A program made the position numbers and the translations under genes. Of a DNA stretch of 56,864 bases, positions 399 to 17,019 are shown one piece after another. Below the pieces are notes generated by a model. It was not told the DNA's origin, did no database searches, and saw nothing but the letters and a program-made list of their open reading frames with translations. How positions within the stretch are numbered: the first letter of the stretch is position 1; each line of letters opens with the position of its first letter. This stretch comes from Gammaproteobacteria bacterium (lineage in GTDB: Bacteria; Pseudomonadota; Gammaproteobacteria; Eutrophobiales; Eutrophobiaceae), in assembly GCA_051275005.1 (NCBI GenBank), contig JBNMOP010000001.1:1-56864 (forward strand). Reading direction: 5' to 3'.

Positions 399-2102
399 AT
401 GACGACAATAATCACAAAATTCTTCCAGATTAAAGAACAACTGATCCTGGTATGTATGCTGGAATTATTACATTTCTCTATCTGGACTGATCTGTCTGGA
501 CCCGTATCCATATCGCTATTACTTGTTCACCTGGGATTTTTTCTATTGTGGCAGCCTCTATGGAAAGGTGACGAAAGACTCCGTTGGTTTGATATATTAC
601 TCCTGTTATTAATAACCTACGCTTTTTTATTCTGGATTGGTTGGTGGCTGATACTTGCCTGGACCATATTATTATTGGGTCTGTCCGGGGGGCAAATAAA
701 CATTAATAGTAGAGAAAGAAATATTTACATGCTCACTCTGATATTCCTGGTATTTGAAGTGCTAATGCGCGGTACACCTATGTTATTTATAATCCCAATC
801 CCTACTAGCATAAACGAAATATTTGAAATTCTACTTCCAACCTTACCGTTAATAATATTGGTCTTACCAATTCAAAATGAAGAAAGGCGATTTCAATCTG
901 TTGACTTCATCCATGCAATTTCTATATCAACATTAACCAGCCTGTTGGTTGCTGGTACTTTATTAAATATGTACATGACCCAGACGTATTATATCATTGC
1001 ATTAATTCAGAGCCTGTTTGTCATTGGTGTCTTTTTATTAGCAATTAGCTGGCTGTCGATTCCACGAGCCGGTTTTGCGGGTCTTCCCCAGTTATGGTTA
1101 AAATCTATGCTCAATATCGGTACACCATTTGAAGGATTTCTAAATGGTCTGTCGATATTATTCAGGCAAAAGTCATCTCCAGAGGAATTCTTATCATCAA
1201 CCATGGAAGAACTGGTCGAGTTGCCCTGGATCGAAGGTGTCGAATGGAATATAAATGGTGTTCGTAGCATCGTTGGACAAAAGGCAAAAACCGAAACCAG
1301 TTTAAATATAGATAACCTTACGATTTGTATATACAGCTACACTCCTGTCAGTGGTGCACTGTACTTTCATTGTAAACTTCTTATGCAACTCATAAATAAT
1401 TTTTATGTCGCCAAGATAAGTGAACGTGACCTGACACATCAAACCCACCTCAAGGCAGTCTACGAAACCGGGGCTAGGATTACACATGATATAAAAAATC
1501 TGCTTCAATCCCTGCAGGCACTAACCAGTATCATTGCTACCGATAATGAACAGGATAATTTTTACGTATCAGGCAAATTACTCACAAAACAACTTCCTAC
1601 TCTCACGAAACGTCTGAAGCTGGCCCTGGATAAACTACAAATGCCTGAAAACATTAATCAGGAATCTGTCTACCTAAAAGACTGGTGGGATGATCTACAA
1701 CATCGATCAAATCCGATAAATACTAGTTTTATACAGGATATTTTAGGTGATCAGATTATTCCTAGCGACCTGTTTGATAGTGTAGTAGATAATTTATTTG
1801 AAAATATCAAAACCAAGATACAGCTTGATGGAAACATAACTACCAACGTCAGTCTTTTTTCAAATGAACAAAACATCATTCTGACCATTTGCGACAACGG
1901 TAGTCCTATTCCAGATTCCAAGGAAAAAATAATTTTAAAAGAGCCGTTGCCTTCAGACAACGGATTGGGCATCGGACTATATCAGGCAGCCAGACAGGCA
2001 GAATCACTGGGGTATAAGTTCATACTTAAAAACAACATGGTCGGCAACGTCTGCTTTGAACTCAGTAAGCAGGACACCACAGGTCAAATTGATTTGATTT
2101 AG
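399..2102 (+). CDS. Multi-pass membrane sensor histidine kinase (PrsK/PilS-like architecture)
   Basis: About 230 aa of hydrophobic N-terminal helices. H-box ITHDIKNLLQSLQAL, N-box DNLFENIKTK, G1 ICDNGSPIP and G2 GLGIGLYQAARQAESLGY. Its stop codon overlaps the stop of the convergent pilin gene. Confidence 0.8.
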   Translation: MTTIITKFFQIKEQLILVCMLELLHFSIWTDLSGPVSISLLLVHLGFFLLWQPLWKGDERLRWFDILLLLLITYAFLFWIGWWLILAWTILLLGLSGGQININSRERNIYMLTLIFLVFEVLMRGTPMLFIIPIPTSINEIFEILLPTLPLIILVLPIQNEERRFQSVDFIHAISISTLTSLLVAGTLLNMYMTQTYYIIALIQSLFVIGVFLLAISWLSIPRAGFAGLPQLWLKSMLNIGTPFEGFLNGLSILFRQKSSPEEFLSSTMEELVELPWIEGVEWNINGVRSIVGQKAKTETSLNIDNLTICIYSYTPVSGALYFHCKLLMQLINNFYVAKISERDLTHQTHLKAVYETGARITHDIKNLLQSLQALTSIIATDNEQDNFYVSGKLLTKQLPTLTKRLKLALDKLQMPENINQESVYLKDWWDDLQHRSNPINTSFIQDILGDQIIPSDLFDSVVDNLFENIKTKIQLDGNITTNVSLFSNEQNIILTICDNGSPIPDSKEKIILKEPLPSDNGLGIGLYQAARQAESLGYKFILKNNMVGNVCFELSKQDTTGQIDLI

Positions 2103-2905
2103 GGCAAACGCTCCGCCTGGACCATTTTATAGATTAGAAAATTAGTCGGTATCCAGATCAACATATCGTCAAATTCAACGGCGGGAACATTACTATAATC
2201 TTTATCTATAAATAAATCAGCAGTATCAAATGGAGCAATAGTATCCTGGTTTTCCTGTTCAAAATCTGAAGAGGGGTTATCTGCATCATCCACATTTTTA
2301 CCATAGGAAATCACCAAAGCAGGAAGCTTACTGGCAAGTACCACATAACCGGTATCATTGTCGTAATCATTAATAGTAATATCACCAACAGAACATATCT
2401 GAAATGATATCCCTGCTGCTGTCGAACATCCCGCTACTGCTGTGCCATCGGTATCATCGGCAAATGTCTGATCAACTCGATATATAAAATGATTCCCCCA
2501 GGCATCGAACTCATTCACACCCAGGGTGGCCCAGGGGAGATTGCCTTCAGATGTGGCACAACTGACAAAGTTTGGTCTGGGCACAGGGCTAAAGTCATCA
2601 GCAGCTACGCCGTCCTCCGTCCCATCGTTGATGTCTGTGGCAACAGCAGCACTAACCCCGCCACAACCTACACCGGTAGCATCAGGACAATCTGGACAGG
2701 GGAGATGACCATTGACCATAGCAAAGCCAATAAGACTGTCTCGAGCCTCATTCAGGAGTACTGTTGTTTTGTTTCTTTCTCCACCTTCAATTCGGGTAGA
2801 TAACGGCCCAAGAATGCCACCCAATACCAGGCTGATGACAAAAAGCACCATCGCCAATTCCACCAGGGTAAACCCTGAGCTAACTTGATATACCTTATTT
2901 GACAT
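2099..2905 (-). CDS. Prepilin-type N-terminal cleavage/methylation domain protein (large pilin/pseudopilin, ~268 aa)
   Basis: Class III signal peptide MSNKVYQVSSG/FTLVELAMVLFVISLVLGG with Glu at +5. Cys-rich LPCPDCPD...EGNLPWATLG module and a C-terminal FDDMLIWIP...MVQAERLP tail. The track start at 2911 is GTG; ATG at 2905 is more likely. Confidence 0.8.
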   Translation of the reverse strand: MSNKVYQVSSGFTLVELAMVLFVISLVLGGILGPLSTRIEGGERNKTTVLLNEARDSLIGFAMVNGHLPCPDCPDATGVGCGGVSAAVATDINDGTEDGVAADDFSPVPRPNFVSCATSEGNLPWATLGVNEFDAWGNHFIYRVDQTFADDTDGTAVAGCSTAAGISFQICSVGDITINDYDNDTGYVVLASKLPALVISYGKNVDDADNPSSDFEQENQDTIAPFDTADLFIDKDYSNVPAVEFDDMLIWIPTNFLIYKMVQAERLP

Positions 2906-2910
2906 ATCCA

Positions 2911-4896
2911 CTATGGTGCCTCTGCCAATACCCTGCTCTGATCGTTAAAATTGCTTATGGTACCCTTCTCAAATATCTCGTCTAAGGGCGTTCCATTTTC
3001 ATTTTCGAAATACTGAGTAATATCACCAGGCGAACCGACCCTGTCCTGCCCTGTCAATTCCTGTCCCGCAACCAAGGCAACAACACGTTTGTTATTTGTT
3101 GTGCCGCCGGTTCCATTGATTGTTATGCAATCTGTGCCCGAGGTACAAACCGTGGTGCCCGGGGGTGACCCTTCTCCTGCGGCGTAGGCAATATATATTT
3201 GCTCGTGCCATTCATTATCAGTAAACCATTCGGGCAGTTCCCCATCATTTATGTCAATATCATATTGAATGCTGGCGGTAATTGTCCCGGTAGTATCACC
3301 ATCATTAGTTAGGATTGATGTGCCTGTAGCAGCATTGTAAGTATTTGTAACGGGGCCAGGCTCAGTAGTGACTACCTGCCTGTTATCTACAACAGTAATG
3401 GATATTGAAGTCATCCCCCCGGTACTCTTCATGGATTCACCATCATCTTCCAGGTTCAGACTACGGGTCCTTTGACTGATTGCCGTAGGAGAGAATATAT
3501 CAGCACCGTCAGCTGAGTTGTCGGTAAATACAATATTGATAGTGTAGGCACGTGTAATGGTTTCTGTGTAGGCATATTGTATCCGTGTGCCGAACTGCCA
3601 GCCTGTGGAAAGCGAGCTCCCCCTGACTGTATTATATGCGCACGGACAACTAGAGTCCCAAACCAAAATCCATTGATTTTCACCATTAACAAATGCATAA
3701 CCCCAATCTGCTATTACCTGCTGTGGATATGAATTGATGACCTCGTTCACGAATGTCCCGGTACAATTAAAGGTCCCTATGGTTGTCCATGTGCAGGTAG
3801 CATTAAGAAAGGTTATTGGCGCGGCAATATCTAATCCTGAAAAATTTGCATCAGTACAGGATGAATTCTGTACGCAAACCAGTGAAGGCGTCACAATACG
3901 GCCGGAATAAGCGTGATAGCCAGATATAGAACCATAAGTTGTGTTTCCTGGACCAACAATAGTTGCACCAGCAGTAGTCCAATCTAATCTGATATCCGAG
4001 GTAAAAGGATTTCTTCCTGGAATTCCAAGGATTGCACCTGCGTTTGTAATTGAATCAGGGTCGGCGCTCCAGTGAAATGGCAAACGCCCGCGCATGGTGC
4101 CAGATTGACCTCGAAATGCAGAAGTTGCCGGGTCGGCAAACGTGCTCAACCATGGATAAACACCACTGCCTGTCTGATAGTCAGACAACATCCTTTCAAC
4201 ATCACCCAGCACACGTTTTTCCACGACCTCCATCAATTCAGAACGGGTAATGTATATCACCTGATCATTAGTAGTATCTGAAATGCTTGCCACAAAACTA
4301 TTGTCATTTACCTCGTTACCCCCTTCAAGGTAATTCGAAGCAAGGAGAGGACCTGCGATCCTGTCTTGTGCACCCAAAGGGGCACCTGGGGAAAATATCA
4401 CCGCAACAATATCTGGAGAGTTATCTACAGTAATCGTTCCGGAGAGATCGCTGTTTATCTTTGTTGCGTCTAGAACCGTAGTCCTGAAATTATCTGACAC
4501 AACATACCATAAATGTTCCCCTTCATGGTCGGTGAACTCACCCATATCAACCGTCTTCCATGGAAATCTCCCATGTGTGGTATCACCAGCTAAAGAACAA
4601 TTCCCAACAGCTGAACCATTATTGTTTATATCAGGACAAGGCAGTATACCTGGGCTACCACTTGCATGATTATCAGGGTAGGTCACTGAGTACATCAATA
4701 ATGCGGTCTTGGCCTCACTCAATATACTCGCCGTTTTGGCCTGACGTGAATATAGTTTCAGGTTCGCATTTAGATTTGAGATCAGTATAAATGATGCCCC
4801 CGACACCATTATCAACATTAATGCCAGCAATGCCGCACCGGATTGTGACCTGGCGCATCTATTGCTGAACAGGTTTAACGTATTAGAAAATCTCAT
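2911..4896 (-). CDS. Large PilX_N/GspK-like minor pilin or tip protein (661 aa)
   Basis: The N-terminus RSQSGAALLALMLIMVSGASFILISN resembles the non-cleaved PilX/GspK/MshP hydrophobic segment. It shares the LPCPD...G.FPW.T module with the 270-aa prepilin. The C-terminal part is long and Thr/Gly/Asn/Cys-rich. The start overlaps the upstream stop (TAATG). Confidence 0.55.
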   Translation of the reverse strand: MRFSNTLNLFSNRCARSQSGAALLALMLIMVSGASFILISNLNANLKLYSRQAKTASILSEAKTALLMYSVTYPDNHASGSPGILPCPDINNNGSAVGNCSLAGDTTHGRFPWKTVDMGEFTDHEGEHLWYVVSDNFRTTVLDATKINSDLSGTITVDNSPDIVAVIFSPGAPLGAQDRIAGPLLASNYLEGGNEVNDNSFVASISDTTNDQVIYITRSELMEVVEKRVLGDVERMLSDYQTGSGVYPWLSTFADPATSAFRGQSGTMRGRLPFHWSADPDSITNAGAILGIPGRNPFTSDIRLDWTTAGATIVGPGNTTYGSISGYHAYSGRIVTPSLVCVQNSSCTDANFSGLDIAAPITFLNATCTWTTIGTFNCTGTFVNEVINSYPQQVIADWGYAFVNGENQWILVWDSSCPCAYNTVRGSSLSTGWQFGTRIQYAYTETITRAYTINIVFTDNSADGADIFSPTAISQRTRSLNLEDDGESMKSTGGMTSISITVVDNRQVVTTEPGPVTNTYNAATGTSILTNDGDTTGTITASIQYDIDINDGELPEWFTDNEWHEQIYIAYAAGEGSPPGTTVCTSGTDCITINGTGGTTNNKRVVALVAGQELTGQDRVGSPGDITQYFENENGTPLDEIFEKGTISNFNDQSRVLAEAP

Positions 4897-5483
4897 TAAA
4901 GGAGTTCAGGAGGTCCACCAGGCGTTAATATCGGCGGAGGTGGCAGATCTGTCGGGACCGGCATACTCTCACCAGTATCCGGTGGGGGGAGACCACTGCC
5001 AGAGGCCATATCTCGGAGGGAACTGACCGGGTCTTTTGCCAAATCATAAACCTGTTTTGAGCGGACATCATATTGCTGTCCTACCTTCAACTCTATACGA
5101 CTTTGATTATCCGGCAGGGTAATTTCCACATTATTGGAATGCACATTATTTTCGTTCACCCTTGTATATTGGTTCTCAATACTGCCTTCGTTTGTACTAT
5201 TGCTATTTAACCATGCGGTGTTTTTACCATCTGTTCGATATACCAGACCGTTCAGGGTAATTGAGTCGATTATGGTTACAGTCTCTTCTTCAGACGTTAT
5301 ATCCATTAAATTGTCAGGGACTATATCAACCACAATCTCTTCATCTGGCCTTTTAATCCTCTGTTCGTCCAGTTGCATGCGCTGTCTGGGGGAGGTATAA
5401 AATCGTCCAAAACCATTATCAGCTGCAGCGGATAGAGATATACAAACCAGTGTAAAAATAAAAATTAATATTAAATTTTTCAT
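4896..5483 (-). CDS. Secreted periplasmic protein, MshK/PilP/GspC-HR-like, Pro-rich C-terminus
   Basis: Signal peptide MKNLILIFIFTLVCISLSAAA (internal ATG at 5483, 2 nt after the upstream stop). The ITLNGLVYRTDGKNTAWLN segment resembles the secretin-binding HR/PilP fold. C-terminal tail LPPPDTG..DLPPPPILTPGGPP. Confidence 0.4.
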   Translation of the reverse strand: MKNLILIFIFTLVCISLSAAADNGFGRFYTSPRQRMQLDEQRIKRPDEEIVVDIVPDNLMDITSEEETVTIIDSITLNGLVYRTDGKNTAWLNSNSTNEGSIENQYTRVNENNVHSNNVEITLPDNQSRIELKVGQQYDVRSKQVYDLAKDPVSSLRDMASGSGLPPPDTGESMPVPTDLPPPPILTPGGPPELL

Positions 5484-5485
5484 AA

Positions 5486-6106
5486 TCAAACTTCTATAGG
5501 TTGCCCATCCGCAAGCCTGATTGTGTACCAATCAAGATCACACTGGGCATTAATATTTGCTGCATTTGTATTACCTGAATTTGATGAGGCTGATGGGGTA
5601 ATGCTACATTTAGAGATACTAAATAGGCCCTTTGCGTCCTCTTCAAGCTTGTCAAATATTCGAAATAAATCTCCCTCATGAAGTAACTGCATGGTTAGTG
5701 ACATCTTACTACTAAACAACTTGTATTTTCCCAATGTTAATGGGATTCCAGGGGTAAAAACTTGCTGTGAATCAATCTGATATGAGAGTGATGGTAGTTT
5801 AATCTCCTCACCGGTATCCCTCAATACCTCAACCCAGTTAAGTCGTTGCTCTTTTCCGATAACACCTTCATTATAAAATCCTACAAAACGTGGTAAAAAA
5901 TTTCTAATCAACTTTTCTTCTTCATCCACTGCCAGATATCGATTACTAATAGACATGAAAGCGACATTGGTACGATTAAATTCTGCTTGCATCTTTTGAG
6001 TAAAAAAATAACCTCCGTAGATAAGTGAGCTACTAACTATGATTGTTAAAATAAACACAATCAATGAGCCTCTTAGAATCTTCCAATCTATGTCATTTGT
6101 ACTCAT
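5486..6106 (-). CDS. Bitopic inner-membrane protein, PilO/GspM/MshJ-like
   Basis: Short cytoplasmic N-terminus, one TM (LIVFILTIIVSSSLIYGGYFF) and a ~170-aa periplasmic domain. Size, topology and position match MshJ/GspM. The start overlaps the upstream gene by 14 nt. Confidence 0.5.
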   Translation of the reverse strand: MSTNDIDWKILRGSLIVFILTIIVSSSLIYGGYFFTQKMQAEFNRTNVAFMSISNRYLAVDEEEKLIRNFLPRFVGFYNEGVIGKEQRLNWVEVLRDTGEEIKLPSLSYQIDSQQVFTPGIPLTLGKYKLFSSKMSLTMQLLHEGDLFRIFDKLEEDAKGLFSISKCSITPSASSNSGNTNAANINAQCDLDWYTIRLADGQPIEV

Positions 6107-7715
6107 TATTTATTCCCAGAACTATTCTAATTGAAAACTTTGCTTCCCGTTCTGTCGCAGCTGTATTGCCAGACATATTTGCTTCCGAGCTAACATCCAA
6201 CGGAAGACTTATTATGCTCACATCATATACATCTGCCTGATTGCGTAATGTTTCAACATATTCATTGATTAATGATATTGCCCGACGGAAATTACCATCA
6301 AACGGATTAATCTCGGCTTCGAGTGATGCTATTTGATAATAGTTATATTGATTTTCGGCAACGTTAACATTACTGAATCCGATTACTCCCTGATTATTGG
6401 TGCTTCTACCAGTCGCAACATTGACATTGGGATCTGCGCCTGAAGTCCATTGGAAACCAGAAATCTGGACAGTTGAATAAGCATTCATCGCAACACTTAT
6501 CAATTTTATTAATTCCAGGGGTGTGGTTTTAAAAGACTGTAGATTATCCACAAGTTCGACCGCAATTTTTAAATCAGCCGCCTCAACGGGTGTTTGTGGC
6601 AAGCCTTCCCGGGCAATCTTGTATCGTACGTCATAAAAGTTAGTCTTATTTTGTGCCGCCAGGGTATTTTGGCGAAACTCCACACCCTGCATAAATGTGT
6701 AACCACTCCACAATACGCTAGAAATAATCATAATTGCACTCAATGCCAGCATCCCAATACGCATATTACGCATAGAGTTGTATCGCCTTTCTCTGGGCAG
6801 AGCATAGGTATTCTTCGGCTTAAGTTTTAACAACTGGTGAATATAAAGCTGATCACTAAACGGTGACGAAACCTGGTGAGAGGAACCAGATTTTGACAAT
6901 AGGGCATTTATATCCAGGAAATGCATACCTTCCTCAAAGCTGTCTTTATATTCATTTTTCATATCTTCCAATAATTCACCACCAAGTAGAAAATATGTAT
7001 TTAATGAATTGTCGCCCGAGCTGTCTGATGAAATTAAACGAACACTATTTAGATATCGTTTTATTTTCTCCACTTCATCTTTGATGTGTGGACCATATGG
7101 CTCAGTACCGTACCGAGGTAATTGCACCAGTCGACTGACGCGCAGTTGATTGTTACCAATAAATGTCTGTCTTAAACCACTTATACTTTGGATGCTTACG
7201 ATTAAATTATTGTCTCCTGCATCAGGGAGTAACTTAATCATATCCACGGTCATTATTGGCACAGAATTAATTCCCACCAGGGGGATCTGATATTTCTCCA
7301 GCAATTCTATCCAGGGTGTGATTAATTTTGGGTTGGTAACAGCAGATAGTAATATCTGGTCATCCTTTCTACCCTCAGTCTCTCTACCCTGAACCGTATA
7401 ATAATAATATGGCGTATCCCTGAATAGTCGTGCCTTTTTGCGCTCAATTATCGATGCTCGGTCAGACCCATATACATGAGGAGAAGTATCACGCTTGAAC
7501 TCTTCCTCAAATATATCCAGTAGAAGATAGATTGGTATTTTAGGCGTCTCACTCAAATACCTTTCAAAATATGTTTTTCCTTCATCGTTGATATCAAACA
7601 GATAGGAACTGGCCAGATCACCTTTGTGCCAGTGATACACAGCCAGCTTATGGGCGCTGACGAAAATCGCGCGGCGTTTGGCTAAATCAAATGTCAATTT
7701 CAGTGATGAGGTCAT
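6093..7715 (-). CDS. Fused PilM-PilN / GspL / MshI-like assembly protein
   Basis: A ~320-aa cytoplasmic domain, a central TM (MRIGMLALSAIMIISSVLWSGYTF) and a ~200-aa periplasmic domain. This is the GspL/MshI architecture and the gene lies directly after the platform gene. The start is uncertain (ATG at 7727 or 7715, or TTG overlapping the gspF stop). Confidence 0.55.
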   Translation of the reverse strand: MTSSLKLTFDLAKRRAIFVSAHKLAVYHWHKGDLASSYLFDINDEGKTYFERYLSETPKIPIYLLLDIFEEEFKRDTSPHVYGSDRASIIERKKARLFRDTPYYYYTVQGRETEGRKDDQILLSAVTNPKLITPWIELLEKYQIPLVGINSVPIMTVDMIKLLPDAGDNNLIVSIQSISGLRQTFIGNNQLRVSRLVQLPRYGTEPYGPHIKDEVEKIKRYLNSVRLISSDSSGDNSLNTYFLLGGELLEDMKNEYKDSFEEGMHFLDINALLSKSGSSHQVSSPFSDQLYIHQLLKLKPKNTYALPRERRYNSMRNMRIGMLALSAIMIISSVLWSGYTFMQGVEFRQNTLAAQNKTNFYDVRYKIAREGLPQTPVEAADLKIAVELVDNLQSFKTTPLELIKLISVAMNAYSTVQISGFQWTSGADPNVNVATGRSTNNQGVIGFSNVNVAENQYNYYQIASLEAEINPFDGNFRRAISLINEYVETLRNQADVYDVSIISLPLDVSSEANMSGNTAATEREAKFSIRIVLGINNEYK

Positions 7716-8892: not shown

Positions 8893-8894
8893 TA

Positions 8895-10616: not shown

Positions 10617-10617
10617 C

Positions 10618-12327
10618 TTAGTTACCCGTGCTCAGGGAGTTTATTCGATCCTGAATATTTACAGTATTAAATCCAGCAGGTGTAATTTTAGCAAGGTCGA
10701 TCGCAGTTTTATAATAATCCAATGCGGGTTGTGTTTGACCAAGCCGGTCAAGACTTATTGCCAGATTTAAGGCAAAATCAGGATTACTTGAGTCCAATCT
10801 ATATGCGTCAAAAAAAGCCTGTTGTGCCTCTGACCAGCTGGCCCTGCTAGCATTAAGTTTACCAAGTGTGAAAAAAAGCAAAGGCTGGTCCGGGGCATCG
10901 AACAACATTGTTTTTATTGCACTGATTGATTCGGTAACACTATTTCCATACTCGAACCCCAATACTGCAGCCCTGGCAATATTGTCCAGGGGGTTTTGTC
11001 TTAATATTTGAATATAAAGATTCAATGCCGTATCCATATCACCTTTTCGGGTAGAGATCGCTGCTAACCCTAATAATACATCCCTGTTATCCGGTATTAT
11101 TTCTTCTGCTTGCAGGTAAATGGCTTCAGCCCTCGAGTATTCGCCTGCCCGATAGGCAATATATGCCTCTTTTATTAGTTGGTTATCACCAGACCGCGGT
11201 TGAGATCGAGTAATCTTAACTAACGATGATGGCGGTACGATAACTTTCGGTAAAGTCGCGGTATCCTCAAGGCCTAATCCGAAGCTATCCTGTGTAGCTG
11301 CAATTGAACTTTCCAGATCATTCGTGTCTGTTATTTGATTATCCGCTTCAGGATCAGCGATATCGGTTACAGTATCAGTAACCATTGATTCATCGATAGT
11401 TTCCTCATCTGTGATGCCATCTGATCCAATATCGCCGTTTGGAGTTAACCCATCTGTCGCAGTTTGAGCACTCGGATCCTGTGAAAGAACCGTAATTGGG
11501 GCAAGTTTATTGACGCCTGCATTACTGATTATCGTTTCCACTCCTCGCGCTACTAAGGGAGAAGGCATATCACGGGATATCGGTATCACTGAGTAGTAAT
11601 AAACAATAATTGCTGAACCTACTGCAAATATCGCAAACGTTACAAGTAACCACCTCAAAACCGATGATGGTTTAGCAATTGTATTAGTTGCTGTAAATAT
11701 GGTTTGTGCAGCTACGGGTGTAGGTTGGTCAGGAGTACCAATATCCTTGGCAAGTTGCGCCGCGAGTACCCCAGGTAATGTTTCATCATATGACTTATGA
11801 TAATCTTCAGATTTAAAGGGCTCACCCTGAAGCGTGTCTTCGTAAAGTTCAGAACTGAATGTCTTATCCAGGTCCACCTCATGTAAGGTCTGTTGAGGGT
11901 TCATATCCGGAGCTTGTGGAATCTCAGCAACCTCAAGTTCTCGGGTTATCTCAAGTTTCTTATGTTCACCTGTGGTGGTTATAGGCTGTTCTATGGCCTG
12001 GGTTACATCTTCAAAACTATCCTCCATGATCTCTTCGACTTCGGGCTTTGGTAGTGTAAATTTTTCGGGATCGTCTTTTTCTGTTGAACCTTGCTCCAAA
12101 CCGGCTTCAATTGGTTCAAGTGAAAGATCCAGCGAGGATTTATCAGATGATAAGTCTGCCTGCACTGGTAAAGAATTATTTGTAGAATTTAAATCTTGAT
12201 TGGGACCAGTCGCCTCAGCAGAATTCTGTTGAACCTGAATCTCACTATCTTCTGTCAGGTTGCGCTTGTTGGCGGCATCCTTTTTATCCTGCTCCGCCTT
12301 TTTTAAGGCATCCATCAACAGGCTCAT
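10618..12327 (-). CDS. GspB/MshN-like TPR protein (bitopic, acidic disordered linkers)
   Basis: N-terminus MSLLMDALKKAEQDKK is of the GspB/ExeB/MshN type. It is followed by an acidic low-complexity region, a TM (WLLVTFAIFAVGSAIIVYYYSVI) and C-terminal TPR-like repeats (AYRAGEYSRAEAIYLQA..., ALNLYIQILRQNP..., ALDYYKTAIDL). Confidence 0.65.
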   Translation of the reverse strand: MSLLMDALKKAEQDKKDAANKRNLTEDSEIQVQQNSAEATGPNQDLNSTNNSLPVQADLSSDKSSLDLSLEPIEAGLEQGSTEKDDPEKFTLPKPEVEEIMEDSFEDVTQAIEQPITTTGEHKKLEITRELEVAEIPQAPDMNPQQTLHEVDLDKTFSSELYEDTLQGEPFKSEDYHKSYDETLPGVLAAQLAKDIGTPDQPTPVAAQTIFTATNTIAKPSSVLRWLLVTFAIFAVGSAIIVYYYSVIPISRDMPSPLVARGVETIISNAGVNKLAPITVLSQDPSAQTATDGLTPNGDIGSDGITDEETIDESMVTDTVTDIADPEADNQITDTNDLESSIAATQDSFGLGLEDTATLPKVIVPPSSLVKITRSQPRSGDNQLIKEAYIAYRAGEYSRAEAIYLQAEEIIPDNRDVLLGLAAISTRKGDMDTALNLYIQILRQNPLDNIARAAVLGFEYGNSVTESISAIKTMLFDAPDQPLLFFTLGKLNASRASWSEAQQAFFDAYRLDSSNPDFALNLAISLDRLGQTQPALDYYKTAIDLAKITPAGFNTVNIQDRINSLSTGN

Positions 12328-12329
12328 TT

Positions 12330-13955
12330 TTACTGCTCCTGACTTCCTGTGTTTCCCGGACTATAAGCCGATGATTCAAGATATTTTCGAAAATCCTTCA
12401 GGTCGCCATCGATACTTGCGTTCTTAATTACAACTGGTCTTAGAAATATTACCAGTTCAGTTTTTAGTGATTCCTGATTTTGAGATTTAAACAAATTACC
12501 TATTATGGGGAGATCCGCCGCAAAAGGCGTCTTTTTATCCTGAGTCCGCAAGGTATCCTGCATCAATCCACCAAGTACCGCCACCTGGTTGGTGTTTATT
12601 TTCAGGATAGATTCCATTTCACGGACCCTGATTACAGGGATCCTGTTAGCAATAGTTAATGTCGGGTTAGGATCGAGTTCTGTCCTGACCACAGAAGAAA
12701 TAGTGGGCCTGACATTAAACGTCACACTATCATCATCACTAATTTGAGGAGTGACCGTCAGAACCAGACCCACAGGAACTGTTTGTGCTGTCGTGGTTGT
12801 GGCCACAGTCGCCGAACCCCCAATTGCTGTACTTGGTTCAATTTCCTGGGTTACTTCAAAGTAAACAAAATTTTCGACTACCTTTAATACCGCAGTATGA
12901 TTATTCAATACCATGATTTGTGGGCTGGATAAGACACGCGTATCACCAAATTCGGATAACAGGCTAATCGCTGCAGATATTTGCTCACCACTACCGGAGG
13001 GAGCATTGTAATTTAAAACCATGGAAGAACTGGTAATCGGTGGGCCTGCCAATGCACCAGGTGCTCCACCAAGCAAGTTAGATGCGATGCTAAATCCTCG
13101 GCTATTCAGATCAAGTACTGACCAGTCAATTCCTGCCTGAAACTGATCGCTCAGATCAACCTCTACTATAGTTGCCTGTACCAATACCTGTCTTTGGACA
13201 CGTTCCAGAATCTGGTCGATGAGGCGCTGTACTTGTTGGTGCTTGAATGCAGTTGTTCGCACCGAAATAATTCCGCTTTCCGGATTTGATGTCACGGCAT
13301 CTTCCGCTGACGTGTCGGACTCAGGATCGGTAATTACAGCAATAATACTAAGTCTCAAGTTTTCCCAGAATTGATGGCTGGATTCAGAAGAGATTGATGT
13401 GGTTGAGGTATTGCTTCCGCCGCCCCCTCCGTCACCACCGGATGAACCCGAGGCAATTGCAGTTGAAACCGTCACAGTCCCGGTAGTATCGCGAGAAAGA
13501 TTTAAATAGCCGATATTATATGTGCGGACAAAATCAGTATCAGGTGAAATAATAAGATTATTATCAATAAATTCGTATCGAAGACTAACCTGCCTGGCCA
13601 CACGATTGAGGATCTGTGGTAGTGTCTGGTCCACGGCATTAATTGTTACTACCCCGACAATTTCAGGGTGAATATCTATATTTATTTCCGCATCCCTGGC
13701 AAGGGCAAATAATAGCTCTTTAACAGGTACTTCATTTACGACCACGGTATATTTAGCCTCTTCTGTCAGCTGTTCGGGCTCAGGTAAAATCGAGGTTTGC
13801 TGGATAATATCAGGAATATTAGATTGAGGAATTACAGGCGTTGCTGGGATGTGACCTGTTGATGGCTCTAGCGGTTGTGGCGTTATCTCTGCGCAACCAT
13901 ACATTGTTACTACAATCAGTAATAATGAAATTGTCTTATTCATTTTCCACATCAT
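12330..13955 (-). CDS. Secretin, MshL-like lipoprotein secretin
   Basis: Signal/lipobox-like MNKTISLLLIVVTMYGC. Gly/Ser-rich spacer after the N-domain (ASGSSGGDGGGGGSNTS..SHQFWENL). Conserved secretin C-domain (VLSSPQIMVLNN..., PIIGNLFKSQNQESLKTELVIFLRPVVI). ATG at 13943 is an alternative start. Confidence 0.9.
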   Translation of the reverse strand: MMWKMNKTISLLLIVVTMYGCAEITPQPLEPSTGHIPATPVIPQSNIPDIIQQTSILPEPEQLTEEAKYTVVVNEVPVKELLFALARDAEINIDIHPEIVGVVTINAVDQTLPQILNRVARQVSLRYEFIDNNLIISPDTDFVRTYNIGYLNLSRDTTGTVTVSTAIASGSSGGDGGGGGSNTSTTSISSESSHQFWENLRLSIIAVITDPESDTSAEDAVTSNPESGIISVRTTAFKHQQVQRLIDQILERVQRQVLVQATIVEVDLSDQFQAGIDWSVLDLNSRGFSIASNLLGGAPGALAGPPITSSSMVLNYNAPSGSGEQISAAISLLSEFGDTRVLSSPQIMVLNNHTAVLKVVENFVYFEVTQEIEPSTAIGGSATVATTTTAQTVPVGLVLTVTPQISDDDSVTFNVRPTISSVVRTELDPNPTLTIANRIPVIRVREMESILKINTNQVAVLGGLMQDTLRTQDKKTPFAADLPIIGNLFKSQNQESLKTELVIFLRPVVIKNASIDGDLKDFRKYLESSAYSPGNTGSQEQ

Positions 13956-13962
13956 CTATTTA

Positions 13963-13984
13963 TCATTGCAATAACTATACCCAA
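13963..13984 (-). promoter_or_regulatory. Candidate sigma-54 (-24/-12) promoter upstream of the secretin gene
   Basis: The minus strand reads TTGGGTATAGTTATTGCAATGA. GG and GC have the canonical spacing and the -12 element is TTGCA. It lies in the only sizeable gap (70 nt) of the operon, downstream of a sigma-54 activator gene. The -24 element is imperfect (GGGTAT versus TGGCAC), and the predicted transcription start would be very close to the start codon. Confidence 0.25.
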
Positions 13985-14025
13985 CTCACTAAGTGAAAGA
14001 TATATACATTCCATCTCTTTCAAAA

Positions 14026-15480
14026 CTATAAGTTTTCTGTGGTCCATATCGGCCGATATATAAAAGACCAACATCGGTCACAAATGTCGCTTTCTGGAGA
14101 CGTTTTTTGGAGATCTACAGATTCTGGAGGAAGGATATCGAGCTGACGCTGAAGTGCGGCTGTTTCACTGACCGTCAGACGGGAATCGCCCCTATCCTGT
14201 AATCGGAAAACCACTGTCATCCCCAGCAGTTGATCTTCCACATCATGTTCCTTAGATATCCCTATTAAATTTGGAACCTGTAGAGTCTTATGTTGCACGG
14301 AATTTGTATCAGGATTTACCGCTATTACATCCACGTCTGCTTTGTACATATCTGGATTAATGGCGGTTTCAGTAGTTGATACTGTGGTTGATGAAACTGC
14401 TTGTGTAACAACATTGGAAACCTCATTATTGATGCTATCTGGTATCTGTTGTGTTATTCGTTCCTCTATGACAGTCGAATTTTTAACAGGGACCGGTGGC
14501 AAGATATCAATCTGATGTATAGTTTCATCTGAACTATTCGCCCCACTTGTATTGATTTGTTGTACCTGTCCATTGGTGGATTGCCGAAAAATAAAATAAC
14601 TGCTGACCGCTAATACCGCTACCAAAGTCGCTGCTGTTATCACAATAGGTAATTTTACCCTACTAGTACTGGGTATGAATTCTGAATCTCGCGCTGCCAG
14701 TCGTGTGTGTTTTATATTTACCTGACGGGCATTGTCTGCATATGCTGCCAACAGAGATTTATCTGCCAGTATATTAATTCGCCTAAGCAATCCTTCTGAG
14801 TAGGACTCTATCTGCTTAATAGCGGAATCATCAAACAAATCTCCCGCACGGTATCCACAGGCACGAATTCGCGTATTTAAATACTCACGAATATCATTTG
14901 TTTTAAATGGTGTGAGATCAAAGCTATAGGTAATGCGTTCCTTCAACTGCCTAATCTCAGGTTGTGAAATCATTACATCAAGTTCTGGCTGACCAAACAA
15001 TACTATTTGCAACAATTTGCTTTGTTGCGTTTCCAGATTAGTGAGTAAGCGAATTTCTTCCAATGTTGCAATCGGCATACTCTGGGCTTCCTCAACAAAG
15101 ACAACTACCTGCCTGTTTTCACTGTGTTTTTGCAAAAGATATTGTTGCAGCACATTCATAACCTCAAACCTGGAGGTATCTGGTTTTACATCAAGCTTTA
15201 ATTCAAACGCAATTGCATGTAATGTATTTTCAGGAGATATACTGGGGTTCATCATGTATACCACTTCAATATTGTCTGGTAATTCTTTCTCTAACATGCG
15301 ACACAACATCGTTTTACCGCTGCCCACTTCACCAACGACCTTTACAATGCCTTCACCATTTTGGATTGCATACACGAGGGCATCCAGGATGGCACCTCGA
15401 TTACCGCCGGCATAAAACAGGTTTGTATCCGGTGTTATGCGGAATGGCGGTTGGTCTAATCCGAAATAATCATAGTACAT
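14026..15480 (-). CDS. ExeA/GspA/MshM-family AAA+ ATPase with TM and C-terminal extension
   Basis: Walker A GEVGSGKTMLCR and Walker B-like VVVFVEEAQ. N-terminus YYDYFGLDQPPFRITPD is typical of ExeA/MshM. TM LPIVITAATLVAVLAVSSYFIF is followed by ~185 aa of Ser/Thr-rich periplasmic tail with no obvious peptidoglycan-binding motif. Confidence 0.85.
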   Translation of the reverse strand: MYYDYFGLDQPPFRITPDTNLFYAGGNRGAILDALVYAIQNGEGIVKVVGEVGSGKTMLCRMLEKELPDNIEVVYMMNPSISPENTLHAIAFELKLDVKPDTSRFEVMNVLQQYLLQKHSENRQVVVFVEEAQSMPIATLEEIRLLTNLETQQSKLLQIVLFGQPELDVMISQPEIRQLKERITYSFDLTPFKTNDIREYLNTRIRACGYRAGDLFDDSAIKQIESYSEGLLRRINILADKSLLAAYADNARQVNIKHTRLAARDSEFIPSTSRVKLPIVITAATLVAVLAVSSYFIFRQSTNGQVQQINTSGANSSDETIHQIDILPPVPVKNSTVIEERITQQIPDSINNEVSNVVTQAVSSTTVSTTETAINPDMYKADVDVIAVNPDTNSVQHKTLQVPNLIGISKEHDVEDQLLGMTVVFRLQDRGDSRLTVSETAALQRQLDILPPESVDLQKTSPESDICDRCWSFIYRPIWTTENL

Positions 15481-15484
15481 AATG

Positions 15485-16882
15485 TTAAGGTATCTTTATT
15501 GAAAGCCTCTGAAGCCTACTATAGAGAGTAGTGCGATTAATGCCCAGATATCTTGCTGCTTTACTTAAATTTCCTCCACTCATTTCCAGTGCAGTGTTTA
15601 TATAACGCCTTTCCCATTCACTCAGGTTATTTTCCAGGCTAAATTCCTTCTCCAACATCTCTTGTTTAAGTGATTCTGTATACTCACCAACCAACTCAGA
15701 ATTAACCTCGTAGGTTTGTGATTCAAGTTCATTATTAAGCTGATCAATTTTGACTTTAACGCCAGGATATTTTGAATTAAGGCGTATACAAATATTGCGT
15801 AATTCTCTAACATTTCCTGGAAAAGAATAATTACTTATTCTCTGCTCAGCCTGATCATCCAGCTCAAATGGATTGTTATTTATCGCATAGAGTATTTTAA
15901 AATGTTCCATTAGTAACAAACTATCAGTATCACGCTCTCTTAGTGGCGGTACATTAATAGTCAATACACTTAACCTGTGATACAAGTCTTGTCTGAATCG
16001 ACCTGTTCTTACCTCCTCTCTAACGTCCCGATTGGTTACGGCTATAATCCGCGCCCTGGAAACCCTTACGGCAGTTTCACCCAATCGATAATACTCACCG
16101 TTTTCCAGAACTCTTAATAACTTAGACTGCAGCTCCACTGGCATTTCACCTATCTCATCCAGAACCAGACTGCCATCACCACTGTCTTCAAAGAAACCTG
16201 CAACTGTCTTGGTTGCCCCGGTATAGGCCCCCTTGGCATATCCGAATAGCTGAGCTTCAAGTAATTCAGATGAAAACGCAGCACAGTTTATAGTTAGAAA
16301 GGGTGCTTTTGCTCTTGCACTTTGCTCATGTATAAATTTTGAAACTAACTCCTTACCGCTGCCGGACTCCCCTTCTATAAGCACAGGAAATGGCGTATTT
16401 GCGAACTGTTTTATTATTTCGTGTAGTGTTTTTATCGCCTGACTTTCCCCAAGCAGACTTTTTCCACTTGACGCACCTGCCTCTTGTATTTGTTCTGCGT
16501 CCAGCATCATTTGCTGATGTTTTAATCGGGATCGTAATAACGGTATGTCACATGGCTTCGATACAAAATCCACAGCCCCTAATGTCAAGGCATGCTGGAT
16601 ATTAGTCGTTTCATTCTGTCCGGATAAAACCAGGATTTTAATGTCGGAATTAAAGACAAGTAGCTCTTGTATCAGTTTAAATCCTTCATCAGGATGATGT
16701 GAATGAGGCGGTAAGCCAAGGTCTATCAATGCAATTGATGGGATTTTATCCAGCTTTCTGATAAGTTTTTTGGTCTGCTCACGGCTCTCTGCCGCATATA
16801 CAATAAATTCATCTTCCAGGGCAATAGTAAGCGTCTCCACAATAAGTGGATCATCATCAACAAATAGGATTTCGGTCATCAT
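15485..16882 (-). CDS. Sigma-54-dependent response regulator (NtrC/AtoC/PrsR-like bacterial enhancer-binding protein)
   Basis: REC domain (FVDDDP..., acceptor IALIDLGLPP). AAA+ sigma-54 module (GESGSGKE, GAFTGA-type loop GAYTGA, ESELFGH-like AQLFGY, GNVRELRN). C-terminal Fis-type HTH (SKAARYLGINRTTLYSRL). The track start at 16894 is TTG; ATG at 16882 is listed here. Confidence 0.9.
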   Translation of the reverse strand: MMTEILFVDDDPLIVETLTIALEDEFIVYAAESREQTKKLIRKLDKIPSIALIDLGLPPHSHHPDEGFKLIQELLVFNSDIKILVLSGQNETTNIQHALTLGAVDFVSKPCDIPLLRSRLKHQQMMLDAEQIQEAGASSGKSLLGESQAIKTLHEIIKQFANTPFPVLIEGESGSGKELVSKFIHEQSARAKAPFLTINCAAFSSELLEAQLFGYAKGAYTGATKTVAGFFEDSGDGSLVLDEIGEMPVELQSKLLRVLENGEYYRLGETAVRVSRARIIAVTNRDVREEVRTGRFRQDLYHRLSVLTINVPPLRERDTDSLLLMEHFKILYAINNNPFELDDQAEQRISNYSFPGNVRELRNICIRLNSKYPGVKVKIDQLNNELESQTYEVNSELVGEYTESLKQEMLEKEFSLENNLSEWERRYINTALEMSGGNLSKAARYLGINRTTLYSRLQRLSIKIP

Positions 16883-17019
16883 TTTGTTTTGCAAAGATGT
16901 TTAGTCTTAGATCCAAGAGGAGTCATTGGCTCAAAATACAACCATGTTTGGAGCACTACAAGTGGCAGTATCGATTTTGTATGATAAAACGATGTTTCTT
17001 GGCTCAATTTACATCTTAC

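Follow-up and report, generated by a model that had tools for sequence, protein, structure and literature searches.

In the type IVa pili of Pseudomonas, Myxococcus and Geobacter, pilA is under PilS/PilR-RpoN control, and pilS/pilR is the classical two-component system adjoining pilin genes. The type IVb pili TCP and CFA/III combine a single major pilin with a single minor one that is large and modular (TcpB/CofB), and in the ExeAB/EpsAB arrangement a bitopic AAA ATPase with a periplasmic tail is paired with a bitopic partner. CpaL of the Caulobacter Tad pilus and GspK are tip pilin-like proteins that give a C-terminal beta-strand in cis (PMC13533445). In MSH loci the prepilin peptidase is always absent, and the MSH model permits the major pilin to be a 'loner' gene elsewhere (PMC6668835). 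The locus described here lies at one end of a 56.8-kb window (the whole stretch of DNA that was analysed), and we conclude that it is a variant, so far undescribed, of the MSH-like family of type IV filaments.

The envelope machine and its relation to MSH and type II secretion

The genes of the locus, with the truncated gene at the contig end, are as follows.

3..335, minus strand, 5'-terminal 111 codons of an ABC-2 permease gene that the contig end truncates (translation; match to the L001 assembly's ABC2 permease at 44% identity, E 8e-28; synteny)
399..2102, plus strand, sensor histidine kinase (HATPase_c, Pfam, weak; NCBIfam PrsK-like, E 1.2e-8)
2099..2911, minus strand, P1, 270-aa prepilin (G/FTLVE; N_methyl/TIGR02532)
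2911..4896, minus strand, BIG, 661-aa modular pilin-like protein (GspK-like leader QSG/AALLALML, no Glu5)
4896..5531, minus strand, K, 197-211-aa exported protein (hydrophobic N-terminus, signal or anchor; position conserved in relatives)
5486..6106, minus strand, J, 206-aa bitopic inner-membrane protein (TM 14-34, TM scan; position conserved in relatives)
6093..7727, minus strand, I, 540-544 aa, MshI/GspL analogue (AF2 model and Foldseek)
7687..8892, minus strand, inner-membrane platform, GspF/PilC/MshG family (T2SSF 1.9e-51; TIGR02120 GspF 294 bits against a cutoff of 424)
8895..10616, minus strand, assembly ATPase, GspE/PilB/MshE family (T2SSE 1e-128; MshEN 5e-12)
10618..12327, minus strand, bitopic TPR protein in the MshN/GspB position adjoining the secretin (Pfam TPR at 380-550; TM scan)
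12330..13955, minus strand, outer-membrane secretin, MshL type (Pfam Secretin 1e-36 and Secretin_N_2)
14026..15480, minus strand, ExeA/GspA/MshM-type AAA ATPase (AAA_22 1.3e-25; TIGR03015-like, 200 bits against a cutoff of 324)
15485..16894, minus strand, NtrC-family sigma-54-dependent response regulator (REC, AAA+ and Fis HTH)

The eleven minus-strand ORFs and the convergent histidine kinase gene of the preliminary description were all found, and the 12 ORFs are intact and tightly coupled. Its tight junctions and single 70-nt gap (between the ExeA-like and secretin genes) were borne out, but the overlaps are longer than it claimed: 14 nt between the 544-aa and 206-aa genes, and ~29-41 nt between the GspF and 544-aa genes, varying with the start codon chosen. 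Its domain calls (RR, AAA_22, Secretin, TPR, T2SSE with MshEN, T2SSF and N_methyl) also stood, and six products were identified clearly, namely the sigma-54 response regulator, the ExeA/MshM-type AAA ATPase, the MshL-type secretin, the TPR protein, the MshE-type ATPase and the GspF platform. For the 544-, 206-, 211- and 661-aa products, Pfam and NCBIfam searches gave no family match.

The secretin best fits the MshL model TIGR02519 (247 bits, cutoff 250.2) versus 164 for GspD and 103 for PilQ. It has a lipobox-like N-terminus (…VVTMYGC), it is short and without the Secretin_N (N1-N3) repeats that GspD has, and in the PDB it matched GspD/PilQ at 1e-21 or weaker only. In the assembly ATPase, motif reading placed an N-terminal MshEN c-di-GMP-binding motif pair at residues 12-35 and 41-64, which exceeds the cutoff of NF053729 (47.9 bits, cutoff 38) and is kept in gamma-type relatives. 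The best PDB matches of this ATPase are full-length PilB/PilF, and it scores almost equally on the GspE and PilB models (516 vs 511 bits). A TM scan of the ExeA-like ATPase showed a TM helix at 279-297 followed by a ~185-aa periplasmic tail, and the neighbouring TPR protein has an acidic cytoplasmic N-terminus, a TM helix at 223-241 and periplasmic TPRs.

Structure prediction was informative for the 544-aa protein, which belongs to a family of 2552 clusters at 50% identity. Its model (AF2 pLDDT 80.5) has an actin-like domain of the PilM/GspL type in the cytoplasm, a TM helix and, in the periplasm, an alpha-beta domain, and Foldseek matched it to PilM (5eou, E 6e-11), cyto-EpsL (1yf5, E 5e-8) and GspL (4pht_X). 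The predicted structure thus shows a PilM/GspL-like protein, and the earlier label 'GspL/MshI-like' is supported by structure but not by sequence. J has a short cytoplasmic N-terminus, a single TM helix and a periplasmic domain, and neither J nor K gave a family or PDB match. The earlier labels 'GspM/MshJ-like' for J and 'PilP/MshK-like' for K found no support from any sequence method used; from topology, size and position a PilO/GspM/MshJ-like role is suggested for J and, likewise from position, size and membrane topology, a PilP/MshK-like role for K.

These results show that the GspF platform, the MshE-type ATPase, the PilM/GspL-like 544-aa protein and the MshL-type secretin form the core of an envelope-spanning pilus apparatus, and the claim of a complete type IV filament envelope machine was upheld, with both MSH and ExeAB affinities. 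The locus shares with MSHA of Vibrio cholerae (MSH class of the TFF superfamily) the MshL-type lipoprotein secretin, the MshEN c-di-GMP motif in the ATPase, the ExeA-like ATPase (MshM) and TPR protein (MshN) genes beside the secretin gene, the E-G and I-J-K blocks, and the single locus without a prepilin peptidase. The blocks are however permuted, as had been proposed, to M-L-N / E-G / I-J-K versus I-J-K-L-M-N-E-G-F in MSHA. Unlike MSHA, the locus has no MshF and no recognisable MshB/A/C/D/O/P/Q, its I, J and K proteins have no detectable sequence similarity to any family, its M protein has an ExeA-style TM helix and periplasmic tail, and its pilin set consists of P1 and the modular GspK-like protein, plus a third prepilin (pilin2) in relatives. 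A dedicated kinase and sigma-54 regulator, and in relatives a linked ABC transporter, set it further apart.

The ExeAB affinities could also be read as those of a divergent T2SS, in which a short pseudopilus of pilin2 and P1 in the periplasm, with the 661-aa GspK-like protein as its cap, acts as a piston pushing folded periplasmic substrates through the secretin, which the ExeA/ExeB-like proteins assemble as in Aeromonas and Vibrio T2SS. The locus indeed has E, F and L-like components and a secretin, a TM-bearing ExeA-like ATPase with a periplasmic tail and a bitopic partner adjoining the secretin as in ExeAB/EpsAB, a GspK-like leader without Glu5 in its tip protein and no retraction ATPase; NCBI names P1 'pseudopilin PulG', and the top NCBIfam matches of the ATPase and platform are GspE and GspF. 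Both scores are however far under the curated cutoffs, no GspC, GspH, GspI, GspJ or GspM homology was detectable, and hhalign against Aeromonas ExeC/L/M/N/K gave probabilities of at most 7%. The short, lipobox-bearing, MshL-like secretin does not have the GspD N1-N3 domains, a profile search recognised no peptidoglycan-binding domain in the ExeA-like protein, and the MshEN c-di-GMP domain is typical of pilus ATPases. As the candidate major subunit is moreover large and PilE-like, and its gene a pilA-like unit (see below), we consider a T2SS unlikely.

Pilin-like proteins and the contig end

Searching all six frames of the whole window gave a single canonical prepilin motif (GFTLVE); the window has just one canonical prepilin and one GspK-like protein. 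Canonical minor pilins were not found in the window, nor was an A24 peptidase, and the remainder of the window consists of housekeeping genes. The preliminary description was right that a prepilin peptidase is absent from the locus, but this is no anomaly since absence is the rule for MSH loci (PMC6668835).

P1, with 547 homologues, has the lollipop architecture of a pilin (AF2 pLDDT 90.2) with an alpha1 helix at 16-67. No solved structure matched its head domain (Foldseek PDB, best E 0.42), and the best, non-significant match was the T4b pilin CofA. P1 is probably a minor or tip-proximal pilin, although its position in the fibre is a guess because the head matches nothing in the PDB. BIG has an N-terminal pilin module with Gly-1 but without Glu5, a variable middle, and ~100 C-terminal amino acids that repeat half the pilin module (97%, E 1e-10 against its own N-module); its length among relatives varies from 330 to 1150 aa. 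The N-module is paralogous to the P1 family (hhalign 99.5%, E 9e-23), and the earlier idea that the machine is devoted to secreting this 661-aa protein is therefore unlikely. The Glu5-less N-terminal module, the long variable middle and the conserved extreme C-terminus repeating part of the pilin head match the cis beta-strand model of CpaL/GspK (PMC13533445), and we propose BIG as a tip or initiator subunit resembling these tip pilins. In contrast to them, BIG has no detectable sequence homology (hhalign vs ExeK 7%) and ends in a half-module of ~100 aa where they have a strand of 6-12 residues. The very small pilin repertoire, the large, putatively assembly-initiating minor pilin made of a pilin module with extra domains and the CofA match recall type IVb pili. 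The machine components (MshL-type secretin, MshEN ATPase and ExeA/TPR pair), in contrast, do not resemble those of T4b systems, and the short leader peptides are of the type IVa kind.

The preliminary description held that the locus lacks a major pilin. The contig, however, ends 398 bp past the kinase gene, within the ABC-2 permease gene, and in relatives the order past this point is ABC2 permease, 240-aa protein, guanylate cyclase, third prepilin and ABC ATPase. One relative that shares the metF context (66% identity) has a 239-aa gene farther on, followed by a guanylate cyclase and then by a 248-aa prepilin. Of the 52 relatives with sufficient sequence, 40 have pilin2 at most 7 kb from P1, in two arrangements: it either adjoins the P1 gene (directly after it in 11-13 of the 40) or lies 3-7 kb past the kinase. 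Pilin2 is ~250 aa long, its alpha1 helix hardly varies and it has a C-terminal Cys pair. In the PDB its profile matches PilE best, and its major-pilin signatures are stronger than those of P1. As a separate gene it is preceded by a sigma-54 promoter 47-83 nt upstream in 22 of 26 loci (2% of control windows, binomial P 8e-34) and followed by an intrinsic terminator in 21 of the 26. Pilin2 was not seen in this genome, where JGI and Logan contigs extend no further. Since the contig is cut before the pilin2 position and 40/52 relatives carry pilin2 with major-pilin hallmarks, the claim is unsupported: the missing major pilin is probably a contig-edge artefact, and the gene for the main fibre subunit most likely lies a short way beyond the contig end.

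A minimal filament without a conventional major subunit, with two large pilin-like proteins of which the 270-aa one forms the fibre or the 661-aa one is only exported or displayed, would take the gene content of the window at face value. P1 is well conserved and has a full-length alpha1 helix with Glu5, and could therefore polymerise, and in 12 of the 52 relatives, mostly a betaproteobacterial subgroup, pilin2 was not found within 7-9 kb. Against this stand the position of the contig end, the frequency and signatures of pilin2 in relatives, the 'loner' major pilin allowed by the MSH model (PMC6668835), and the nature of BIG, which is a pilin paralogue anchored in the membrane rather than a secreted substrate of the Sec type. 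This makes a filament of that kind distinctly improbable.

Regulation of the locus

The two-component system of the locus, regarded earlier as atypical, is present, but pilS/pilR of T4aP is its classical precedent. The kinase has ~6-7 N-terminal transmembrane helices without a large periplasmic domain (TM scan), an H-box THDIKN and HATPase_c. Its gene is convergent with the prepilin gene, a position conserved among relatives. The response regulator matched Sigma54_activat (1e-61), Response_reg and HTH_8 in Pfam, and the PrsR and NtrC models at ~336 bits, both under cutoff. No sigma-54 promoter was found in the window; the 70-nt gap contains a weak, non-conserved motif of this kind.

As in the PilS/PilR-RpoN-pilA system, a multi-TM kinase without a periplasmic sensor domain accompanies an NtrC-family sigma-54 activator, and relatives have a -24/-12 promoter right before a monocistronic pilin gene ending in a terminator. 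From this co-occurrence we infer that the regulator acts on that promoter. Unlike PilS/PilR, the kinase and regulator score nearest to PrsK/PrsR and NtrC among the models searched, and the candidate regulated gene lies outside the window.

Conservation and proposed function

The gene order M-D-N-E-F-I-J-K-BIG-P1 recurs in ~80 fetched loci from 115 species, as the preliminary description suggested checking, and because it recurs in other genomes the arrangement is not due to chance. A decaying or non-functional remnant of an MSH/T2SS cluster that has lost its pilin genes could account for the missing canonical minor pilins in the window and for the split genes in some public assemblies (L002). 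It is nevertheless hardly credible, as 12/12 ORFs are intact and tightly coupled, the full gene set is kept at 30-70% identity across the ~80 loci and in >1100 divergent clusters, and the genes split in L002 are intact in L001, an independent assembly of the same sequence. The suggestion of a possibly undescribed system was supported in that no description was found in the literature, four components have no family, and named database homologues of the 544- and 661-aa proteins are all 'hypothetical protein' or carry a generic label.

We favour, with a probability of about 0.6, an undescribed and conserved MSH-related type IV filament machine with pilin2 as the fibre, kinase/sigma-54 control and c-di-GMP gating, which makes an attachment pilus. 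With the 206-aa and 211-aa proteins the alignment subcomplex would be complete. The ExeA-like ATPase and TPR protein, whose genes flank that of the secretin, may help secretin assembly as ExeAB does for ExeD. The 661-aa protein, without Glu5 like GspK/PilK/PilX, would prime the fibre and be joined at the tip by its paralogue, the 270-aa prepilin; its variable middle is probably adhesive. Pilin2, encoded just past the contig end here, would form the bulk of the fibre and be driven from its -24/-12 promoter by the multi-TM kinase and sigma-54 regulator in a PilS/PilR-like logic. Extension may be gated, as it is in Vibrio MshE, by c-di-GMP bound at the N-terminus of the ATPase, and another system may provide the prepilin peptidase, as happens in MSH. 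The product is likely to be a surface pilus that serves attachment. The machine is conserved in >100 proteobacterial species, mostly uncultured, and the locus is probably that of a c-di-GMP-gated adhesive pilus with its major pilin under PilS/PilR-like control.

Gene content, conservation and distribution of the filament locus

ORF listing and Pfam/NCBIfam scans of the window showed eleven co-directional minus-strand genes spanning 16,894 to 2,099, with two further features lying between this operon and the contig end:

399-2,102, convergent to the operon: kinase gene
3-335, minus strand: ABC-2 permease, first 111 residues, cut by the contig end

Six of the operon products are unambiguous in Pfam/NCBIfam: an NtrC-family sigma-54 response regulator, an ExeA-like AAA_22 ATPase, a secretin, a TPR protein, an assembly ATPase and a GspF platform protein. 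The products of 544 aa (I), 206 aa (J), 211 aa (K) and 661 aa (the pilin-like protein BIG) had no Pfam or NCBIfam match. A six-frame motif scan of the 56.8-kb window gave exactly one canonical prepilin, the 270-aa P1, and no mshA major pilin gene; Pfam/NCBIfam scans of the same window found neither an A24 prepilin peptidase nor a PilT-like gene. By ORF listing and domain scans, the genes and arrangement given in the preliminary description were correct overall. The junctions were tight as it had described, with a single sizeable intergenic gap of 70 nt upstream of the secretin gene (13956-14025), but overlaps of 14 nt and ~29-41 nt exceed the sizes it had given.

The window is an entire MAG contig and its remaining genes are housekeeping genes (metF, ahcY, metK, tkt, gap, pgk, pyk, fba, purC, glnS, a ubiH-like gene, pepP, rpiA, hemF, purD, purH, dusB, prmA and accC). 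Between 17020 and 28574 the filament locus directly adjoins core metabolism genes, with metF-ahcY-metK on one strand and genes for an AhpC-like protein, tkt, gap, pgk, pyk and a class-I fructose-bisphosphate aldolase on the other. A relative encoding a 66%-identical I protein has the same metF junction and this, together with the core-gene neighbours, suggests that the filament locus sits at a stable chromosomal position and not on a mobile island. A tblastn search of I against plasmids gave no match, and a secretin search there returned distant GspD matches only. The PLSDB entry 'Aeromonas caviae plasmid pKAM479_3' (L086, NZ_AP026896.1 4218638-4243438) is in fact a chromosome of 4.94 Mb under a wrong plasmid label, and just 18 features are annotated in it; it carries the chromosomal exe type II secretion operon that served as T2SS reference in our comparisons.

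Conservation of the gene order had been proposed as a check on the locus, and in 80 loci fetched from other genomes the succession of ExeA-like ATPase, secretin, TPR protein, ATPase, GspF, I, J, K, BIG and P1 was essentially invariant. In the gammaproteobacterial subgroup the kinase gene follows P1 in convergent orientation, and the neighbourhood there also conserves a 156-aa protein and a Ser/Thr kinase (L001 14482-21332; L003 15916-22705). The GspF and I genes of GCA_038142205.1 are each split into two ORFs (L002 6130-8888) and are intact when the same sequence is taken from an independent Logan assembly (L001 6128-8888); the splits are probably indel errors of the deposited assembly and not pseudogenes.

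A species scan with a degenerate pattern and one genome per species, in which the alignment was restricted to the N-module of BIG (the full one being too divergent), found relatives of BIG in 115 species, nearly all of them MAGs of Gamma- and Betaproteobacteria. These include Thiotrichaceae, Gallionellaceae, Sideroxydans, Accumulibacter, Propionivibrio, Nitrosomonadales, Halieaceae and Pseudomonadales, and the single cultured strain among the BIG-carrying species scanned was Propionivibrio limicola DSM 6832. Among 1.84 billion representatives, a profile of I (locus tag ACI9XC_000007 at NCBI, under an unclassified gammaproteobacterium) matched 2,552 clusters at 50% identity with E <=1e-3, and 1,124 at 1e-30. 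Most I and BIG homologues carried no name at all, and those with a source name were called 'hypothetical protein' or had a generic label; in the literature, no description of such a locus type was found. Judged from its sequence conservation, the system is real and maintained by selection; it is fairly common among environmental metagenomes and has no annotation.

Motor, secretin and relation to known filament systems

Within the TFF superfamily, the assembly ATPase (Pfam T2SSE 1e-128; PDB matches to PilB/PilF/GspE, 1e-122 to 1e-108) is a hexameric ATPase of the GspE/PilB family, and the two-domain platform protein (Pfam T2SSF 1.9e-51) a polytopic platform of the GspF/PilC family. The secretin's best model by far was MshL TIGR02519, at 247 bits vs a cutoff of 250.2, with GspD at 164 and PilQ at 103. 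The AAA_22 protein is of the ExeA/GspA/MshM type (closest curated model TIGR03015, 200 bits, below cutoff) and has a TM helix at 279-297 followed by a 185-aa periplasmic tail, in which no peptidoglycan-binding domain was detectable. Together with the TPR protein, in which a single TM helix separates an acidic N-terminus in the cytoplasm from TPRs in the periplasm, it forms a pair of ExeA/ExeB-like topology whose genes flank the secretin gene. For the kinase (399-2102), the TPR protein (10618-12327), the ExeA-like protein (14026-15480) and the response regulator (15485-16894), the XrtA/PEP-CTERM families PrsK, PrsT, TIGR03015 and PrsR were among the best NCBIfam matches, far below cutoffs; the host taxa are rich in PEP-CTERM systems.

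Pfam scans of 30-31 relatives each of I and J were all negative, and profile searches with the I, J and K families against PDB sequences gave noise only. Alignment of the I, J, K and BIG families to Aeromonas ExeL/M/C/N/K with hhalign reached probabilities of <=7%, with single-sequence references and hence low power. In the AlphaFold2 model of I (mean pLDDT 80.5) an N-terminal actin-like domain is followed by a long TM helix and, in the periplasm, by an alpha-beta domain; the best PDB matches were PilM (5eou, E 6e-11; 2ych), FtsA and the cytoplasmic part of EpsL/GspL (1yf5, 4pht_X, 5tkw). Since the modelled actin-like domain matches PilM/EpsL/GspL and is followed by a TM helix and a periplasmic domain, the 'GspL/MshI-like' label proposed for this protein appears to hold at the level of the fold. 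J is bitopic with a periplasmic domain and K has an export signal in a TM scan; from their position we infer a GspM/PilO-like J and a PilP-like K.

In the MSH model of Denise et al. (PMC6668835), mshE, mshG, mshL and mshM are mandatory in one locus, mshA is mandatory and may be a loner, and MshI/J/K/N/B/C/D/O/P/Q/F are accessory. Homologues of mshE, mshG, mshL and mshM are all present here, the MshL model falling just short of its cutoff (247 vs 250.2 bits) and the MshEN motif being found in the ATPase. Among the accessory genes there is a TPR protein in the N position, an I-analogue by structure only, and J and K by position only; no MshB/C/D/O/P/Q/F-like genes were found in the window by Pfam/NCBIfam and prepilin motif scans. 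MSH loci are by rule without a prepilin peptidase (PMC6668835), and its absence from the window is therefore expected; what had been listed as an anomaly is largely normal MSH practice. The locus resembles MSH in its MshL-type secretin and in an ATPase with MshEN; in gene order it does so in that M and N lie next to the gene for the secretin and that E-G and I-J-K form neighbouring blocks. It differs from MSH in that the blocks are permuted, MshF and MshB/C/D/O/P/Q are lacking, the alignment proteins have no detectable homology, the M protein is ExeA-like and membrane-anchored, the pilin set is reduced and has a putative modular tip protein, and a two-component system and an ABC-transporter linkage are present.

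A T2SS-like pseudopilus is the main rival reading. The type of secretin speaks against it: GspD TIGR02517 gave 164 bits vs a cutoff of 351, with no Secretin_N repeats. GspE TIGR02533 reached 516 vs 630 and GspF TIGR02120 294 vs 424, and the locus departs from T2SS in secretin architecture, GspC and GspH-J. Nor do T4aP models fit, with PilQ TIGR02515 at 103 bits vs a cutoff of 284 and PilB TIGR02538 at 511 vs 676. Unlike the separate PilMNOP proteins of T4aP, the PilM-like domain is, in the model, fused to a TM helix and a periplasmic domain, and PilT is lacking in the window. Ranked by NCBIfam scores, the locus probably falls within the MSH-like family of type IV filaments, as a conserved variant that has not been described so far. 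The variant is marked by several unannotated protein families, a pilin head with no PDB match and a putative modular tip pilin that resembles CpaL/GspK.

The ATPase carries MshEN and the curated 'MshE-related c-di-GMP motif' NF053729 (47.9 bits vs cutoff 38). MshEN consists of two tandem 24-residue RLGxx(L/I/V)2xxG(L/I/V)2xxxxLxxxLxxQ motifs with a short spacer; here residues 12-35 (RIGEILVNKGVTTTDQIEIGLTEQ) are followed after 5 aa by residues 41-64, which makes the protein a predicted c-di-GMP receptor. The first motif is present in 43/70 family ATPases; among those in which it was missed are 5'-truncated ORFs and the betaproteobacterial subgroup without its Arg. In this subgroup the first motif starts QLGQ or PLGx, not RLGE (L034, L038, L039, L044, L046-L049, L056, L062, L068, L069 and L082), and since the Arg is lost, gating by c-di-GMP may there be different or absent. 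Most members of the subgroup also lack the kinase and a nearby gene for pilin2, a third prepilin of the relatives' loci.

Pilin-like proteins and the contig edge

P1 is a subunit with a class III signal peptide as in the TFF superfamily (SSG|FTLVE, with G-1, hydrophobic alpha1 and Glu5; TIGR02532/N_methyl matches). Its model is confident (pLDDT 90.2, pTM 0.85) and shows a 52-residue alpha1 helix (16-67) and a globular head, for which no significant match was found in the PDB, the best being the T4b pilin CofA (E 0.42) and EpsG (E 3). The N-terminus of BIG, ...ARSQSG|AALLALMLIM, keeps a conserved Gly-1 and lacks Glu5, like GspK/PilK/PilX. Over its first ~225 residues BIG is paralogous to P1 along the full length of the latter (hhalign 99.5%, E 9e-23), with the shared motifs LPCPD, LPW.TLG, DIVAVI/PAVV.S.G and FND/FDD. 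The BIG family, with homologues (P0014-P0040) of ~330 to 1150 aa, has this conserved N-module, a middle of variable length and a conserved C-terminus. In BIG itself the C-terminal ~100 residues duplicate the second half of its own pilin module (97%, E 1e-10), a duplication visible by profile comparison only; BLASTP self-comparison gave no internal repeats, and BLASTP of two short motif segments was also negative. Eight long homologues had no Pfam domain. Long homologues contain several hundred repetitive-looking residues (...GDxVxNxTDGSxGxI...) with no Pfam match and no BLAST-detectable repeat.

CpaL and GspK were recently shown to be built from a pilin-like module without Glu5, a middle that can be dispensed with, and a C-terminal strand by which the pilin sheet is completed and the tip complex is licensed to assemble (PMC13533445). 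BIG appears to have a comparable architecture of Glu5-less pilin module, variable middle and C-terminal element; hhalign finds no sequence homology to Aeromonas ExeK. By analogy with CpaL/GspK (PMC13533445) we therefore infer that BIG would be an apical initiator, probably an adhesin, with P1 as its partner; the variable middle suggests adhesion to diverse surfaces.

The lack of a major pilin in the preliminary description would largely be explained by the contig edge. The permease fragment at 3-335 (minus strand) has 44% identity (E 8e-28) with the gene that comes after the kinase in relatives. Beyond the kinase, those relatives have an ABC-2 permease and a 240-aa protein, in some cases a guanylate-cyclase-domain protein encoded on the opposite strand, and then pilin2 and an ABC ATPase. 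The relative with 66%-identical I and the same metF-flanked context has exactly this permease-240 aa-cyclase-pilin2-ATPase arrangement, and in more distant relatives pilin2 comes directly after P1. The 240-aa protein is of unknown family; the cyclase-domain protein is often present, and the pilin2 gene sits between those for the ABC-2 permease and the ABC ATPase. Within <=7 kb of P1, pilin2 was found in 40/52 loci with enough sequence; the 12 loci without it belong mainly to the betaproteobacterial subgroup. The window is cut in a permease that is syntenic with that of the relatives. JGI and Logan contigs are shorter than the window and do not extend past its edge, and the kinase sequence has no record in other assemblies, so that for this genome pilin2 is strongly predicted rather than observed.

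Pilin2 (~250 aa) has the sequence hallmarks of a major subunit. In the gammaproteobacterial subgroup its first ~60 mature residues are almost invariant (KGFTLVEIAIVLVIIGLLLGGILKGQELINSARVRNLADQNSGIQAAYYGFIDRYRQVPGD), compared with 45-50% identity for the machine proteins that these loci encode. Pilin2 also ends in a C-terminal Cys pair, and the PDB profile search matched it best to Neisseria PilE; the match to V. cholerae MshA (9lab) covers the N-terminal ~20 residues only (E 0.006). With P1 it shares the alpha1 helix only.

A -24/-12 motif, TGGCAY-N5-xTGCW, lies 47-83 nt upstream of pilin2 in 22/26 loci where the gene is separate, compared with 2% of control windows; as the loci are related, the binomial P of ~8e-34 is a measure of conservation and not of independent events. 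In 21/26 of these loci there is a strong intrinsic terminator 20-35 nt past the stop codon, and the -24/-12 motif is absent where pilin2 simply follows P1. A separate pilin gene with its own promoter and terminator is what we take to be the pilA/PilS-PilR/RpoN arrangement, which would account for a locus carrying a multi-TM kinase and a sigma-54 activator. These pilA-like genetics also count against a T2SS-like pseudopilus, which is disfavoured. On the operon strand of the window there was no good match to a sigma-54 promoter. A weak sigma-54-like -24/-12 motif, TGGGTATAGTTATTGCA, in the 70-nt gap (13956-14025, minus strand) was rejected because it is not conserved at that position in relatives (7/37 with a loose pattern) and may be chance.

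Proposed assembly and significance

For the MSH-like variant, homology and the modelled fold point to an inner-membrane motor of ATPase, platform and PilM/GspL-like I, and to the MshL-type secretin as outer-membrane channel. J and K would be the remaining parts of the alignment subcomplex, and secretin assembly would be helped by the ExeA-like protein and the TPR protein. The Glu5-less BIG and P1 would form a priming tip beneath which pilin2 polymerises, with a prepilin peptidase supplied in trans. In Vibrio, c-di-GMP binding to MshE gates pilus extension. Here, c-di-GMP on the motif pair of the ATPase (12-35 and 41-64) would gate extension likewise, and the kinase and response regulator would tune transcription of pilin2.

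A joint reading goes further, and we would give it about three chances in ten. The locus would then represent an unnamed type IV filament class, sister to or outside MSH, with alignment-complex families of its own, a new fold of the pilin head and a set of three pilins. Assembly would be primed by a modular tip pilin that complements itself, together with the paralogue of this pilin. The major pilin would be autoregulated via an intramembrane-sensing kinase and sigma-54, and linked genetically to an ABC exporter that alters the fibre or exports something along with it.

For MAG contigs in general, a "missing major pilin" calls for a check of synteny before it is read as biology. Four structural families of the system are invisible to current annotation, so that in public genomes the system is overlooked or wrongly labelled. 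Its tip complex, natural and minimal, would be a place to test the recent beta-strand-addition model of how filaments are initiated. The system would also, as proposed, be a second case, beyond the classic model organisms, of piliation that c-di-GMP gates and sigma-54 controls. Type IV filaments are a model for the diversification of molecular machines, to which this locus would add a widespread environmental clade, with at least 1100 divergent clusters of the I marker. The species that carry the system number at least 115, and among them are Accumulibacter, Gallionellaceae and Thiotrichaceae relatives that matter in wastewater and in iron or sulfur cycling.
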